This document shows, in pieces, positions 20,550 through 27,180 of a stretch of DNA of 32,000 bases; positions within the stretch are counted from its first letter, which is position 1; the number at the start of each line of letters is the position of its first letter. A model generated the notes under the pieces. That model searched no databases, was not told the origin of the DNA, and worked only from the letters and a program-made list of their open reading frames with translations. The position numbers and the translations under genes are program-made. The stretch lies in NCBI RefSeq assembly GCF_000091665.1, contig NC_000909.1:1222961-1254960 (forward strand). The letters are read 5' to 3'. Origin of the DNA: Methanocaldococcus jannaschii DSM 2661 (GTDB taxonomy: Archaea > AGJL01 > Methanococci > Methanococcales > Methanocaldococcaceae).

Positions 20550-21617
20550 TTATAAACTGTGGAAATCAGCAATCATCTTTAAATCATCCTCTAAACATCT
20601 TCCCTTTGTAGTTAAATAATTCCCAACCATTAATCCGTCTAAGACCATTAAGGCATAAGATTGGAAGTCTCTTAAGTTGTATATTCTCCCACCAGCCAAT
20701 CTAATCTCTGCATAAGGCATAATTATTTTATATAACGCTATCAATTTCAAAGCATCTGAGACACTTATTGGCTTAATCTCTCCATTTTTTATTTTTTCAT
20801 AAGCTTTAGTTCCTTCAATTGGATGTAAAATATTTATTGGAACGCTATCAACCCCTAACTCTTTAAGTTCAAAAGCCATCTTTATTCTCTCCTCTACGCT
20901 CTCTCCAAGTCCAAATATTCCACCACTACAAACCTCTAAGTCAAGTTTTTTTGCCTCTTTTATAACTTTTACTTTATCTTCATAGCTATGAGTTGAACAG
21001 ATATTTTTAAAGTAGTTTTTTGATGCCTCTAAGTTATTGTGAATCCTAACGTCCAATTTTTTTAGTTCTTTTAATTTTTCTCTATCCAATAAACCCAAAG
21101 AACAGCACACTTTTAAATTTGTTTCTTCCTTTATAAGCTCTATAGCTTCAACAATTTCAATGAATTCATCATCATTAATTTTTTTGCCACTTGTTACTAT
21201 ACTGAATCTCTCTACCCATAGGGGAAACCCCCTATTGGGATACCCCACGTCCATTAAGTTGGGGCTTTCAGCCCCAATTAATGTCCCACGTTCTATGGAT
21301 GAGGAAATTTTAGAACATTCATCGATGATTTTTTTAGCATACTCTAAAATCTCCTTTTTAGATTTTAATGGATATATTGGGATGTTGCATTTACTATAAA
21401 TTGATTGAGAGCAGAAAATACAATCCTCTTTGCATTTTCCACTTTTTGCATTTATTATAGCACATAATTTAATTTTGCTATTATTTTTTATCCTATTTTT
21501 TATTTTAAAAGCCAAATATAACAAATCTATAGCACTGAAGTTATTATATAAATAGAGGGCATCATCAAAATCTATTTTGTTCTTTAGAGATTTTTTTAAA
21601 AAAGTTTCAATCTCCAT
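20550..21617 (-). CDS. bioB: Biotin synthase (radical SAM) carrying a ~30-35 codon in-frame insertion.
   Basis: It has the CKEDCIFCSQS CxxxCxxC motif, FSIVTSGKK and GLMVGNYLTTKG. The start is re-placed at ATG 21617 (MEIETFL) behind GGTGAT plus 4 nt. The segment SSSIERGTLIGAESPNLMDVGYPNRGFPLWVE sits between the AKK... helix and the conserved (R)FSIVTSG strand, where I recall BioB proteins as contiguous. Confidence 0.9.
   Translation of the reverse strand: MEIETFLKKSLKNKIDFDDALYLYNNFSAIDLLYLAFKIKNRIKNNSKIKLCAIINAKSGKCKEDCIFCSQSIYSKCNIPIYPLKSKKEILEYAKKIIDECSKISSSIERGTLIGAESPNLMDVGYPNRGFPLWVERFSIVTSGKKINDDEFIEIVEAIELIKEETNLKVCCSLGLLDREKLKELKKLDVRIHNNLEASKNYFKNICSTHSYEDKVKVIKEAKKLDLEVCSGGIFGLGESVEERIKMAFELKELGVDSVPINILHPIEGTKAYEKIKNGEIKPISVSDALKLIALYKIIMPYAEIRLAGGRIYNLRDFQSYALMVLDGLMVGNYLTTKGRCLEDDLKMIADFHSL
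21205..21300 (-). repeat. GC-rich two-hairpin element embedded in frame in bioB (modules X and Y).
   Basis: Hairpin X spans 21215..21239 (CCCATAGGGG AAA CCCCCTATTGGG). Hairpin Y spans 21252..21283 (CATTAAGTTGGGGCT TTC AGCCCCAATTAATG). ACGTGGG direct repeats flank Y. GC content is far above the surrounding coding sequence. Confidence 0.7.
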
Positions 21618-21676
21618 AAAAATCACCCTATATACAATAAATAAACATTAACTTTTAAAATTTATTGGTGATTGTT
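21618..21676. promoter_or_regulatory. Compact divergent bioB / bioW promoter region with mirror-image SD sites.
   Basis: 59 bp lie between the two start codons. GGTGAT SD motifs occur on both strands (21622..21627 and 21667..21672). TATA-like CCTATATACAATAAA and TTTTAAAATTTA lie between them, each about 25-45 nt from the opposite-side start. Confidence 0.4.
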
Positions 21677-24304: not shown

Positions 24305-25690
24305 ATGAACATTGATAAAAATTTACTTGAAAAATGGGATAAAGAATATATTTGGCATCCATACACACAGATGAAAGAATATAGAGAATCAAAAAACTTG
24401 ATTATTGAGAGAGGAGAGGGCAATTATTTAATTGACATTTATGGAAATAAGTATTTGGATGCTGTTTCATCTATATGGTGTAATCTATTTGGACATAGTA
24501 GAAAGGAGATAATTGAAGCAATAAAAAATCAAGCTGATAAAATCTGCCATTCAACACTTTTAGGCTGTGGAAACGTCCCATCAATTTTATTGGCAAAAAA
24601 ATTGGTGGATATAACTCCAAAGCATTTAACAAAGGTATTTTACTCTGAAGATGGAGCAGAGGCAGTTGAAATAGCAATTAAAATGGCTTATCAATATTAT
24701 GTTTTAAGAGGAGATAAGGGAAGAACTAAATTTATTTCAGTTAAAGAAGGCTATCATGGGGACACTGTTGGAGCAATGAGTGTTGGGGGGAGTGAATTAT
24801 TCCATGGGGTTTTTAAGCCTTTATTGTTTAAAGGCTATCATGCAAATCCTCCTTACTGCTACAGATGCAAATACCACAACTTTAAAGATACTGATGAGAG
24901 AAATGAAAAAGGTTGTGAAATGGAATGTTTAAATGAGATGATTAGTTTAATTGAAAAACATGCTGAGGAAGTATTTTGTGTTATCCTTGAAGGAGGAATT
25001 ATGGGTTCTGCTGGAATGATTCCATATCCAGATGGATATATTGAAGGAGTTGCAAAGGCATGTAAGGAGAATGATGTAATCTTTATCCTCGATGAGGTAG
25101 CTACTGGATTTGGAAGAACTGGGAAGATGTTTTTCTGTGATAATGAAGAGCTAAAAAAGTTGGAGAAGCCAGATATCCTTTGTCTTGGAAAGGGATTAAC
25201 TGGAGGCTATTTGCCATTAGCGGCAACTCTAACAACTGATGAAATCTATAACCAATTCTTAGGAGAGTTTGGAGAGAGTAAGCAACTCTATCATGGTCAT
25301 ACATACACTGGAAACCAACTTCTATGCTCTGCTGCATTAGCAACATTAGAGATTTTTGAGAAGGAGAATGTGATAGAGAATATCCAACCAAAAATAAAGC
25401 TCTTCCATAAAGAATTAAGGAAATTAAAGGAACTTGAGCATGTTGGAGATGTTAGAGGAAGGGGTTTTATGGTCGGAATAGAGCTTGTAAAAGATAAAGA
25501 GACTAAAGAACCCTACCCTTACGGTTATAAAGCTGGCTACAGAGTTGCTGAAAAGCTGTTAGAAAAAGGTATCTACATGAGACCAATTGGTAATGTTATT
25601 ATCTTAGTCCCACCATTGTCAATAACTGAGAAAGAGATTATTTATCTATGCGATGCGTTGTATGAAGCTATAAAGGAAGCTGACCTGTAA
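24305..25690 (+). CDS. bioA: Adenosylmethionine-8-amino-7-oxononanoate aminotransferase (class III aminotransferase).
   Basis: It has HGHSRKEI, YHGDT, DEVATGFGRTGKMF and the LGKGLTGGYLPL PLP-Lys region. The ATG at 24305 follows a GAGGTGA SD that overlaps the bioD stop. Confidence 0.9.
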   Translation: MNIDKNLLEKWDKEYIWHPYTQMKEYRESKNLIIERGEGNYLIDIYGNKYLDAVSSIWCNLFGHSRKEIIEAIKNQADKICHSTLLGCGNVPSILLAKKLVDITPKHLTKVFYSEDGAEAVEIAIKMAYQYYVLRGDKGRTKFISVKEGYHGDTVGAMSVGGSELFHGVFKPLLFKGYHANPPYCYRCKYHNFKDTDERNEKGCEMECLNEMISLIEKHAEEVFCVILEGGIMGSAGMIPYPDGYIEGVAKACKENDVIFILDEVATGFGRTGKMFFCDNEELKKLEKPDILCLGKGLTGGYLPLAATLTTDEIYNQFLGEFGESKQLYHGHTYTGNQLLCSAALATLEIFEKENVIENIQPKIKLFHKELRKLKELEHVGDVRGRGFMVGIELVKDKETKEPYPYGYKAGYRVAEKLLEKGIYMRPIGNVIILVPPLSITEKEIIYLCDALYEAIKEADL

Positions 25691-25869
25691 TAATGGACAT
25701 TAATTAGGGCTGAAAGCCCTAACTTATAACCAATTATCAAAGCTAAATTATCTAATTAAGGAATATTTAGAAGCCCAAAGGGCTTCTATAAGTGCCTTAT
25801 TTAATTATAAAACTTTGATAATTGGTTAAATGGACGAGTTTTAATGAAACTTTTTCTAAAAGTTTCGAG
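25691..25869 (+). repeat. Composite hairpin element starting immediately after the bioA stop codon: module Y interrupted by a ~100-nt palindromic module, followed by a 9-bp-stem hairpin.
   Basis: Module Y spans 25701..25726 (TTAATTAGGGCT GAA AGCCCTAACTTA). The inner module has perfect 16-bp terminal inverted repeats, TAACCAATTATCAAAG at 25727..25742 and CTTTGATAATTGGTTA at 25813..25828. Its central hairpin TAGAAGCCC AAA GGGCTTCTA spans 25768..25788. GAAACTTTT TCT AAAAGTTTC lies at 25846..25866. Confidence 0.7.
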
Positions 25870-25923
25870 GAGATTATTTATCTATATGATTCCTTATATG
25901 ATGCTATAAAGGAAGCCGACTAG
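25870..25923 (+). other. Orphan duplicate of the last 17 codons of bioA.
   Basis: GAGATTATTTATCTATATGATTCCTTATATGATGCTATAAAGGAAGCCGACTAG (EIIYLYDSLYDAIKEAD*) compares with bioA 25634..25690 (EIIYLCDALYEAIKEADL*). By my alignment 44 of 51 nt are identical. Confidence 0.75.
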
Positions 25924-25952
25924 TAAATAATGAATAGTTATTTTCTATTATT

Positions 25953-27134
25953 TTATAACACCTTCTTTATAGCATTCCAAACTAAAAAACTCTGAGGCTT
26001 TAAAATCCCTTCTATTGGATTTAAGAATAAGATATTTCTTTTAATTAAAAACTCTCTAATTTTTTTAGGTATTTTTATATCCTCTATTTCATAATCTTCT
26101 TTAAATAATTTTAATGCATCAACAACTTTTTTATAAAGTTCCTCATCTTCTTCTTTAACATCCTCTAAGAAATATTTTAACTTTTGAGTAGCATCCTTAA
26201 GCATAAAATCTAAAATATCGTTTAAATTTTCATATCTCAACTTATCAATAACTTTTATTATTAAAACTGGTTTTCCCCCTACATAATTATAGATTAACTC
26301 TTTATCTTCATTAGTTAAGCTCATGTTATTCTCTTTAGCCAAAAAATCCATAAATTTTAAGGCAGTTTCCTTATCAAAATCATCCACTAAGATATATTCA
26401 CCTCGCATAGAGGCAAAGCCTCTATTGCTATACTCCAGAGCGGGGTTGCCAAAGGCAACCCCACTTTCTATCTGGGGGAGTATACCAATAGAGGGGGCGT
26501 AGCCCCCTCTATGGTCATCCACCAAAATATAATCAACTCTATCCTCCAACATTGCTTCATTATAAACTCTCTCTATGAATAAGCTATCTGAACTTAGGCA
26601 GAAAACGTGGCATAGGTGTTTATGCTTGGTTAGAGATACAAAGTAATTAAATAGCTCATAGATTAAGAATCCATTAATTTTCATGTCTCCAATCTTTTGA
26701 AGTTCATCAATAATAATTATTGGTTGCTTTCCTTCTCTTTTAATGTCCATTAAAACATTGGTTATATATCTAAAAACATTTTTAGTTGTTTTCTTTTTAA
26801 AAATCTCGTTTAGAGTATTTTTTGGTATGGGAATGCCATACAATGAAGGTAAGTCATTGATAATTGCCTTAATTACTTCTATAGGGCTTTTATCTCCTTC
26901 ATATTCCTCAAACAAAACTTCAATGAAATCATCGTATTTAGAGATAAAAATCTCCCTCAAATCAAAATAAAACACAATGTATTTATTTTTATCTAATCTA
27001 TTGTTAATAATCTCATTTATTAAGGCAGTTTTTCCACTATTTATGGAGCCATAGATGAAATAAATCAAATTTGGTTCTCCTTCTATAATAGATAAGATTT
27101 TATGAATTTCTTTCTCTCTATTGAAGAATTTCAT
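25953..27134 (-). CDS. Archaeal ATPase family protein (PF01637-like AAA/STAND-type NTPase) carrying a 45-codon in-frame insertion.
   Basis: [10 protein letters not shown]...[16 protein letters not shown] is Walker A and [10 protein letters not shown] is Walker B. The start is re-placed at ATG 27134 behind GGTGAT plus 4 nt. The inserted segment is [45 protein letters not shown]. Confidence 0.8.
26403..26513 (-). repeat. GC-rich three-hairpin element embedded in frame in the ATPase gene.
   Basis: The hairpins span 26405..26428 (GCATAGAGGC AAA GCCTCTATTGC), 26430..26483 (ATACTCC...GGGGTTGCC AAA GGCAACCCC...GGGGGAGTAT) and 26485..26514 (CCAATAGAGGGGGC GTA GCCCCCTCTATGG). Imperfect 24-bp direct repeats flank it at 26379..26402 and 26514..26537. 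Confidence 0.75.
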
Positions 27135-27180
27135 AAAAATCACCAAAATTCCCATTATAAAATGAGAATATATAGTAAAT

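Follow-up and report, generated by a model that had tools for sequence, protein, structure and literature searches.

The window analysed here, a 32,000-nt stretch of DNA from Methanocaldococcus jannaschii DSM 2661 to whose first letter all positions refer unless another locus is named, contains the biotin synthase gene bioB and, inside it, a block of hairpin-forming DNA that is the subject of this report. All perfect GC-rich hairpins of the window fall at just three loci: bioB, the spacer 3′ of bioA, and the gene for an archaeal ATPase (Table 1).

Following the coding strand of bioB through the block, a segment particular to this locus leads into a first hairpin (module A), which is joined by a short linker to a second (module B). 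A first-pass annotation had placed extra codons here, between a helix and the conserved FSIVTSG strand of the enzyme, and alignment with orthologues agrees, 34 codons having been gained net, in frame and free of stops. The two strong hairpins it described are likewise present, as inverted repeats: one at 21215-21224/21229-21238 (10 nt, 90%), the other, which has arms of 12 nt and a perfect core of 8 bp (21259-21277), at 21252-21263/21272-21283. An outer, imperfect repeat lies at 21205-21221/21293-21309 (17 nt, 71%). Folded as RNA, the segment reaches -46.1 kcal/mol, against -32.1 +/- 3.75 for its shuffles (z -3.7; 0 of 200 shuffles equal to it), and the equivalent DNA fold gives z -3.4. The patch is also GC-rich, as had been noted: 0.49 across 21200-21299 versus 0.26-0.30 in the flanks, in a genome of ~30% GC. 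One part of the first description did not survive: the weak direct repeats said to flank the patch, encoding SSIERG and FSIVTSG, are at chance level (p = 0.41) when the 32-nt flanks adjoining the hairpins on either side are aligned locally and the best score is set against shuffles.

The translated open reading frame (ORF) includes AKKIIDECSKISSSIERGTLIGAESPNLMDVGYPNRGFPLWVERFSIVTSG, exactly the peptide quoted in the first-pass annotation; a peptide belonging to the insert is GTLIGAESPNLMDVGYPNR. Read directly, two of the three forward frames of module A contain stop codons and bioB uses the remaining, open one. As runs of T on the coding strand of the insert are no longer than three, and given what is generally known of archaeal termination, we would not expect an oligo-T termination signal within it.

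Table 1. Positions and strands of the bioB insert, its parts and the related features of the window
Feature	Position	Strand	Remarks
bioB (biotin synthase) reading frame	20550..21626	-	Radical S-adenosylmethionine (SAM) and BATS domains; 358 aa; 100% identity to M. jannaschii BioB
117-nt block IIDECSKISSSIERGTLIGAESPNLMDVGYPNRGFPLWV	21213..21329	-	Takes the place of 15 nt of ancestral FDG(V/I)(I/V) codons, as found in empty alleles; net +102 nt = 34 codons; based on alignment of DNA and protein with orthologues lacking the insert
Locus-specific left part of insert TCTAAAATTTCCTCATCCATAGAACGTGGGAC	21283..21314	-	Forms the outer stem together with the right end
Hairpin module A ATTAATTGGGGCTGAAAGCCCCAACTTAAT	21253..21282	-	Most conserved multi-copy module
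Linker GGACGTGGGGTAT, module A to module B	21240..21252	-	Found again as ATGGAYGTSGGGTAT in other A+B copies
Hairpin module B CCCAATAGGGGGTTTCCCCTATGGG	21215..21239	-	Conserved CAATAG/CTATG outer stem; inner stem variable but complementary across the family
Second in-frame insertion, 115-nt three-hairpin element	26400..26514	-	Within an archaeal ATPase gene (25953-27155), whose PF01637 domain it divides in two; encodes 39 residues
Target-site duplication, 3′ copy GAATATATCTTAGTGGATGA, YILVDD	26380..26399	-	ATPase insertion
Target-site duplication, 5′ copy GATTATATTTTGGTGGATGA, YILVDD	26515..26534	-	ATPase insertion
Intergenic family locus right after bioA stop	25695..25869	+	Module A (25699-25726), nested ~100-nt palindrome (25727-25828), palindrome GTTTTAATGAAACTTTTTCTAAAAGTTTC (25838-25866)
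Left copy, 62-nt direct duplication of bioA 3′ end	25634..25695	+	Flanks the intergenic element
Right (relic) copy of bioA 3′ end	25870..25932	+	84% identical to left copy

Distribution of the insert among BioB orthologues

Of 21 aligned BioB proteins, three contain the block: that of the window, P0002 (88% identical) and P0007 (73% identical). It is missing from FS406-22, M. bathoardescens, strain 10A, M. fervens and a sister metagenome-assembled genome (MAG; L121 at the DNA level, P0006 being the MAG protein of the alignment), and equally from the more distant Methanocaldococcus, the other Methanococcales and the bacterial BioB sequences included; these close relatives and all outgroups lack the 34-codon segment, and no aligned BioB of an unrelated lineage carries anything homologous to it. 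Where M. jannaschii has 117 nt, the empty alleles have 15 nt, TTTGATGGAGTGATT, encoding FDGVI; the outgroups read YDGIV or LDGKV at this site, and the insert-free alleles carry similar FDG(V/I)(I/V)E-like residues. Since the empty alleles resemble the outgroups in this way, the empty site is, as judged from the alignment, the ancestral state, which also makes precise and repeated loss of the insert appear unlikely. The junctions are identical in all occupied alleles, including those of L008/L168, and for this reason a single origin of the bioB insert seems likely; in L122/L123 the insert is present in a decayed form.

Presence and absence interleave among relatives: L008 is occupied and its sister L121 empty, M. 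jannaschii is occupied and FS406-22 empty, and the distant L122 is again occupied. With the insert left out, the nucleotide identity of bioB is 87.3% between M. jannaschii and FS406-22, 86.0% between M. jannaschii and L008, 91.0% between L008 and L121, and 75.2% between M. jannaschii and L122. Occurrence in three lineages that are not sisters might be taken to mean that the segment dates back to the ancestor of the genus, with repeated losses since, or that it arose by local slippage rather than from a mobile repeat, the more so as an unrelated AT-rich expansion of 12 residues occupies the same loop in the M. lauensis group. We regard either origin as very improbable: repeated loss would have to rebuild the FDG(V/I)(I/V)E residues that the empty alleles share with distant outgroups, and modules A and B, being found at dozens of unrelated loci, did not arise locally.

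The M. lauensis bioB (L187 10275-10345) merits a description of its own. Its 12-residue expansion, made of AAAATTGAAA-like repeats, is independent of the insert described here; we considered it as a possible relative of the hairpins and rejected it as AT-rich AAAATTGAAA slippage. As it falls in the same loop, between helix 1 and strand 2, this loop evidently tolerates changes of length and is a general hot spot for them.

The insert within the predicted BioB protein

An AlphaFold2 model of BioB (mean predicted local distance difference test score, pLDDT, of 87; predicted template modelling score of 0.88) places the insert between a helix at residues 90-110 and a strand at 138-146, with pLDDT below 50 at residues 114-133 only. 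Foldseek matches the model to the BioB of V. parvula (8vdw) with a TM-score of 0.91, normalised to the target; the phmmer alignment to the same protein is interrupted exactly across query residues 100-140, a stretch to which 6 residues correspond in the solved chain. In the model, then, the insert is predicted to form a poorly ordered alpha-to-beta surface loop, joining helix 1 to strand 2 and leaving the barrel intact. In triosephosphate isomerase (TIM) barrels, alpha-to-beta loops sit on the face opposite the catalytic one.

The first-pass annotation had left three fates open for the segment: translation, removal from the RNA, or inactivation of the gene. The decayed copy in L122 is informative here. 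Its minimum free energy is -28.1, against -23.1 +/- 3.5 for shuffles, where the M. jannaschii insert in the same comparison gives -47.4 against -31.6 +/- 4.0, and its GC content has fallen to 0.33; the hairpins, in other words, are gone, but the length of the block is unchanged and its frame is open; in random sequence of this composition, a frame of 34 codons is open with a probability of 0.06. Between M. jannaschii and L122, the ratio of non-synonymous to synonymous divergence (dN/dS) comes to about 0.40 for the insert and to 0.10 for the remainder of bioB; outside the insert, the ratio is about 0.10 in both comparisons that we made. Persistence of length, open frame and dN/dS in the face of lost hairpins favours translation of the insert together with the gene.

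Intron-like removal from the RNA, by splicing endonuclease acting at a bulge-helix-bulge (BHB) motif or by some other processing, would instead yield a protein without the segment. The ends of the insert do pair in a long outer stem, and BHB introns occur in protein-coding genes of Crenarchaeota. Against this, the 13 strict BHB candidates that we count are at chance level (mean of 15.1 in shuffles), with none at the boundaries or placed to restore the ancestral junction; no pair of bulges of 3 nt appears in the structure of minimum free energy; and of the fates considered, only translation requires that length stay unchanged, stop-free and frame-preserving in three lineages, even in L122. We hold this explanation to be extremely unlikely.

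Inactivation, with bioB a pseudogene in the making and its open frame a leftover, fares no better, and we give it next to no credence. An insertion of 34 residues could disrupt a TIM-barrel enzyme; yet the 358-codon frame is intact, every residue invariant across the BioB alignment is retained, including the CxxxCxxC cysteines, the dN/dS value outside the insert is low, the adjacent bioW-bioF-bioD-bioA cluster is intact, and the loop would lie on the barrel face opposite the active site. M. jannaschii, moreover, grows without added vitamins. Given the invariant residues, the intact cluster and the intact predicted fold, the insert is best described as a tolerated, translated passenger in what is, from its conservation and model, probably an active enzyme.

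Searches with the insert peptide itself brought no relatives to light. A word-indexed protein database returned no candidates, and the 16 weak hits among 1.84 billion representative sequences are bacterial beta-propeller repeat proteins, which share a ‘G(V/L)PLWTNRY’ motif with the ‘GFPLWVER’ of the insert and which we judged to be chance resemblances.

Taking these lines together, we consider it highly probable that the block is an old, in-frame insertion of a non-autonomous, GC-rich hairpin repeat that has been tolerated and translated, an archaeal analogue of the Rickettsia palindromic elements (RPEs). On this account, a hairpin repeat carrying modules A and B would have inserted into the codons of the helix 1-strand 2 loop of the BioB radical-SAM barrel, presumably by the same mechanism as the family copies with 20-63-nt target duplications described below; its length would have chanced to be a multiple of three, and the frame of module A in which it landed would have been the only one without stops. 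Transcribed and translated from then on, it would make a poorly ordered excursion of ~34 residues on the face away from the Fe-S/SAM site, with BioB still working and the element doing nothing for it.

The hairpin family, its target duplications and CRISPR arrays

A search for further copies found the hairpin modules of bioB to be multi-copy. Within the window, module A recurs at 25699-25726 (32 nt, 94%), and the 19-nt hairpin core has this second copy where none is expected by chance; in hydrothermal metagenomes, 62 stretches match a 23-nt module A pattern. A looser genome scan with TTRGGGCTNNNAGCCCYAA gives at least 8 module A loci, from two Methanocaldococcus MAGs, among the matches listed, although the pattern is too loose, as bacterial terminator-like sequences stand among the same matches. 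Module B (CCAATAG-GC stem-loop-CTATGG) recurs in both orientations and with at least 9 different inner stems, all of them complementary: counted directly, since the MAFFT alignment is not structure-aware, the mean number of inner Watson-Crick pairs is 3.2, against 0.41 (maximum 0.96) in 2000 shuffles. Rfam has no family matching the window. The plasmid, phage and IMG/VR collections contain no copy of the element and no mobile vector for it, and no cognate transposase-bearing insertion sequence (IS) was matched in the plasmid, phage and viral collections, Methanocaldococcus chromosomes not having been searched for IS partners. A copy in L174 that looked like a coding insertion was discarded, the spanning ORF being a spurious 5′ extension of the downstream gene.

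The second of the three hairpin loci of the window lies within the ATPase gene (whose product is 100% identical to the M. jannaschii protein) and is again in frame, adding 45 stop-free codons. In each of the nine aligned homologues, one of them 93% identical, YILVDD occurs once and the insert is missing, and the empty site can be read in L168; the target duplication of 20 nt (p = 0.0015) is thus proven. The same three-hairpin composite also occurs in L069. This second in-frame insertion may be a new finding.

At the third locus, immediately 3′ of bioA, the element is intergenic and is flanked by an intact and a relic copy of the end of that gene. The corresponding site is empty in FS406-22, and in the sister MAG L168 (1620-1660) it carries no more than a truncated module A. 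The ~100-nt palindrome nested at this locus is an object in its own right: its terminal inverted repeats are 16 nt long (TAACCAATTATCAAAG...CTTTGATAATTGGTTA) and enclose a GC hairpin at the centre. The palindrome occurs in L051 (2573-2674) and at many metagenome loci as well, repeatedly at CTTA|ATGGA on the 3′ side of module A, and it looks like a classical miniature inverted-repeat transposable element (MITE) with a TTA/TA target, specific for another repeat.

Duplications of this kind are common in the family. Among copies outside arrays of clustered regularly interspaced short palindromic repeats (CRISPR), 10 of the 14 distinct loci (L179, L162, L154, L163, L145, L170, L139, L151, L161 and L160) have locus-specific direct duplications of 19-63 nt at their flanks, with z up to 28. 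The duplications usually span the start codon and ribosome-binding site of a gene, or its last codons and stop, so that the gene survives, an intact end standing beside a relic copy. To our knowledge, 19-63 nt lies outside the range known for DDE transposases, and the long target duplications may themselves be new. At bioB, we tried AAAAAAATCATCGATGA and the downstream AAAAAAATTAATGATGA as a decayed target duplication (p = 0.05) and rejected the pair for its inconsistent position and low complexity.

Most copies of the combined A+B element, in MAG and metagenome loci alike, lie elsewhere: they are found at one end of CRISPR arrays, with a variant repeat, GTTAAAATCAGACCTCTTGGAGGTTAAAG, on one side and a 5′-truncated normal repeat on the other. 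As the opposite end of these arrays bears a conserved leader of ~350 nt, the A+B site is the trailer end. We see it at L045 1400-1600, L051 2440-2720, L074 920-1230, L081 100-300, L069 150-480 and about 25 metagenome loci, and the ‘home’ order of variant repeat, module A, module B and truncated repeat recurs at many trailers. In L074, a cas2-like ORF (MYVIIVYDVNVSRVNK...) starts about 80 nt beyond A+B.

Two further observations lie outside the family. Between 27467 and 29033, the window has several families of direct repeats of 27-48 nt (for example TTGGGCAGACGTTGGCACA...), tens to hundreds of nucleotides apart, which resemble cysteine-motif coding units of a ferredoxin-like gene. In FS406-22 (L124 1509-4028), the order of the biotin cluster differs from that of M. 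jannaschii; the cluster adjoins a gene with a Piwi domain (Argonaute), and a 442-residue ATPase_2/DUF234 gene stands between bioD and bioF.

Weighing of the interpretation and comparison with known systems

The first-pass annotation knew of no established archaeal equivalent for such an element; the absence of one is not supported. One citing paper credits Suyama, Lathe & Bork 2005 (FEBS Lett 579:5281) with ‘archaeon repetitive elements’, ORFs ‘found fused into protein genes’; another attributes to the same study palindromic coding sequences integrated into M. jannaschii genes, and names it alongside Rickettsia and Wolbachia. Going by these citing papers, the kind of element that we describe has been known, and for M. 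jannaschii itself, since 2005. The original abstract is said to count 141 elements in groups MJRE1-3, with three MJRE2 copies inside coding regions. A literature search under MJRE2 and under MJ1296 found no paper. The family represented in bioB very probably corresponds to the palindromic elements, MJRE, of that study.

Several observations sit uneasily with a simple passenger inserted like its relatives. The insert differs between M. jannaschii and L008 at only 3 of 110 nt, where the rest of the gene differs by 14.3% (p = 1.5e-4); its synonymous divergence (dS) is 0.12 versus 0.71 in the rest of bioB, a six-fold reduction (p about 6e-4); and no 110-nt stretch of the 8.4-kb syntenic region is better conserved, 107/110 being reached by only 0.5% of windows of that length. 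Conservation of this order exceeds that of a neutral passenger and calls for either recent transfer of the allele or selection at the nucleotide level. In addition, the left 41 nt of the insert have no other copy in 440 kb of related DNA, and, with no flanking duplication detectable at bioB (p = 0.41, as above), the boundaries and mode of the insertion are uncertain. Lastly, modules A and B may be MJRE2, and bioB would then be a likely candidate for one of the three genes reported to contain it.

Of the two ways to account for the conservation, the simpler is movement of the occupied allele from lineage to lineage by short-patch homologous recombination, the alternative being selection on the nucleotide sequence of the insert. 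In a test of informative sites in L008, the M. jannaschii-like run consists almost wholly of the junction differences, and no recombination tract could be delimited. Against L122, the dS of the insert is again the lower (0.80 versus 1.59), here without reaching significance. That the bioB insert has diverged unusually little at synonymous sites from one lineage to another may be a new finding.

Selection would be expected were the insert a functional nucleic-acid element, a thermostable mRNA structure that adjusts the translation or stability of bioB, or a site in DNA or RNA at which a protein binds and which the CRISPR-trailer copies have in common with it, with translation incidental. Such a role could explain the low dS and the standing of the insert as the most conserved stretch of the syntenic region, as well as the upkeep of family stems through different complementary sequences and of the same A+B pair at many CRISPR trailers. 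Yet most close relatives do without the insert and the outgroups never had it, the gene persists in L122 with the structure decayed, Rfam offers no match, and recent transfer of the allele explains the low dS equally well; overall, we find a functional role improbable.

A bolder picture, which we entertain only tentatively and think doubtful as a whole, is that the hairpin modules form a still-active mobile family with an unusual integration that duplicates 19-63 nt of target, and that the bioB allele has moved between lineages. Integration might proceed through widely staggered cuts made by a CRISPR-integrase-like enzyme, or through switching of replication templates at hairpins; transfer of the allele between Methanocaldococcus lineages would then produce both the patchy distribution and the six-fold lower synonymous divergence.

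The insertion reading that we prefer makes the bioB block a real feature with an ordinary explanation, of a class that is published, if obscure. It implies that selfish hairpin repeats can enter essential enzymes even in a hyperthermophilic archaeon, where they are tolerated as new surface loops. For this genome, the bioB case mainly confirms the point made in 2005, adding dates from sister genomes; the long duplications, the anchoring at CRISPR trailers and the spread of the allele may matter more, if not already described, in that they offer a handle on how the elements move.

Comparison with classical MITEs (Sulfolobus SM, Neisseria Correia) finds common ground in short length, lack of autonomy, multiple copies and inverted-repeat structure. 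By contrast, the outer inverted repeat of the bioB element (17 nt, 71%) draws on host codons, GAGAGATT, that are present in empty alleles too, so that the element itself lacks convincing terminal inverted repeats; the element lacks a short target duplication of fixed length, flanking duplication being no greater than chance; and the transposase-bearing IS that a MITE would depend upon was not found in the plasmid, phage and viral collections.

The long duplications and the trailer sites bring to mind integration of spacers by Cas1-Cas2, including ectopic ‘neo-CRISPR’ integration, in which a long stretch of target (a repeat of ~30 nt) is also duplicated; many copies of our family, too, stand between variant and truncated repeats at array trailers. 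Unlike spacers, though, the family inserts are recurring sequence units of 30-175 nt rather than unique sequences, their duplications vary between 19 and 63 nt instead of keeping to a 30-nt repeat length, and bioB has no detectable duplication at all.

The MJRE elements agree with ours in genome, palindromic nature, length of about 100 nt (the net insert is 102 nt) and strong predicted structure (z -3.7), and in being multi-copy and mostly intergenic, with few copies in coding regions and the frame kept in these; bioB (+34 codons) and the ATPase gene (+45 codons) both comply, neither having a stop. Three loci in 32 kb are compatible with the ~141 elements reportedly present in 1.66 Mb. What differs is the comparative evidence: as there were no sister genomes in 2005, presence and absence among relatives, the copy in decay, the reduced dS, the copies at CRISPR trailers and the long duplications cannot, or may not, form part of that description.

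The likeness to RPEs (Ogata et al., Science 2000;290:347), proposed in the first-pass annotation, and to their Wolbachia equivalents is apt for the behaviour of the element, a non-ancestral, in-frame insertion of repeated palindromic DNA; membership of the RPE family is not claimed. The analogy has its limits: the host is an archaeon and not a bacterium, the modules are GC-rich and different in kind, the family is modular, with A, B and other hairpins combined and many copies at CRISPR trailers, and few copies lie in coding sequence (2 among the 135 hairpin clusters examined) where RPEs occupy many genes per genome. Within those limits, the parallel is close. RPEs are palindromic repeats of ~100-150 nt that lie in frame within housekeeping genes, are translated, and are accommodated in surface loops without breaking the fold; the bioB insert, absent from orthologues, would similarly occupy a low-confidence loop of a model that still superposes on 8vdw, and so represent, in an archaeon, a comparable route to new protein sequence.

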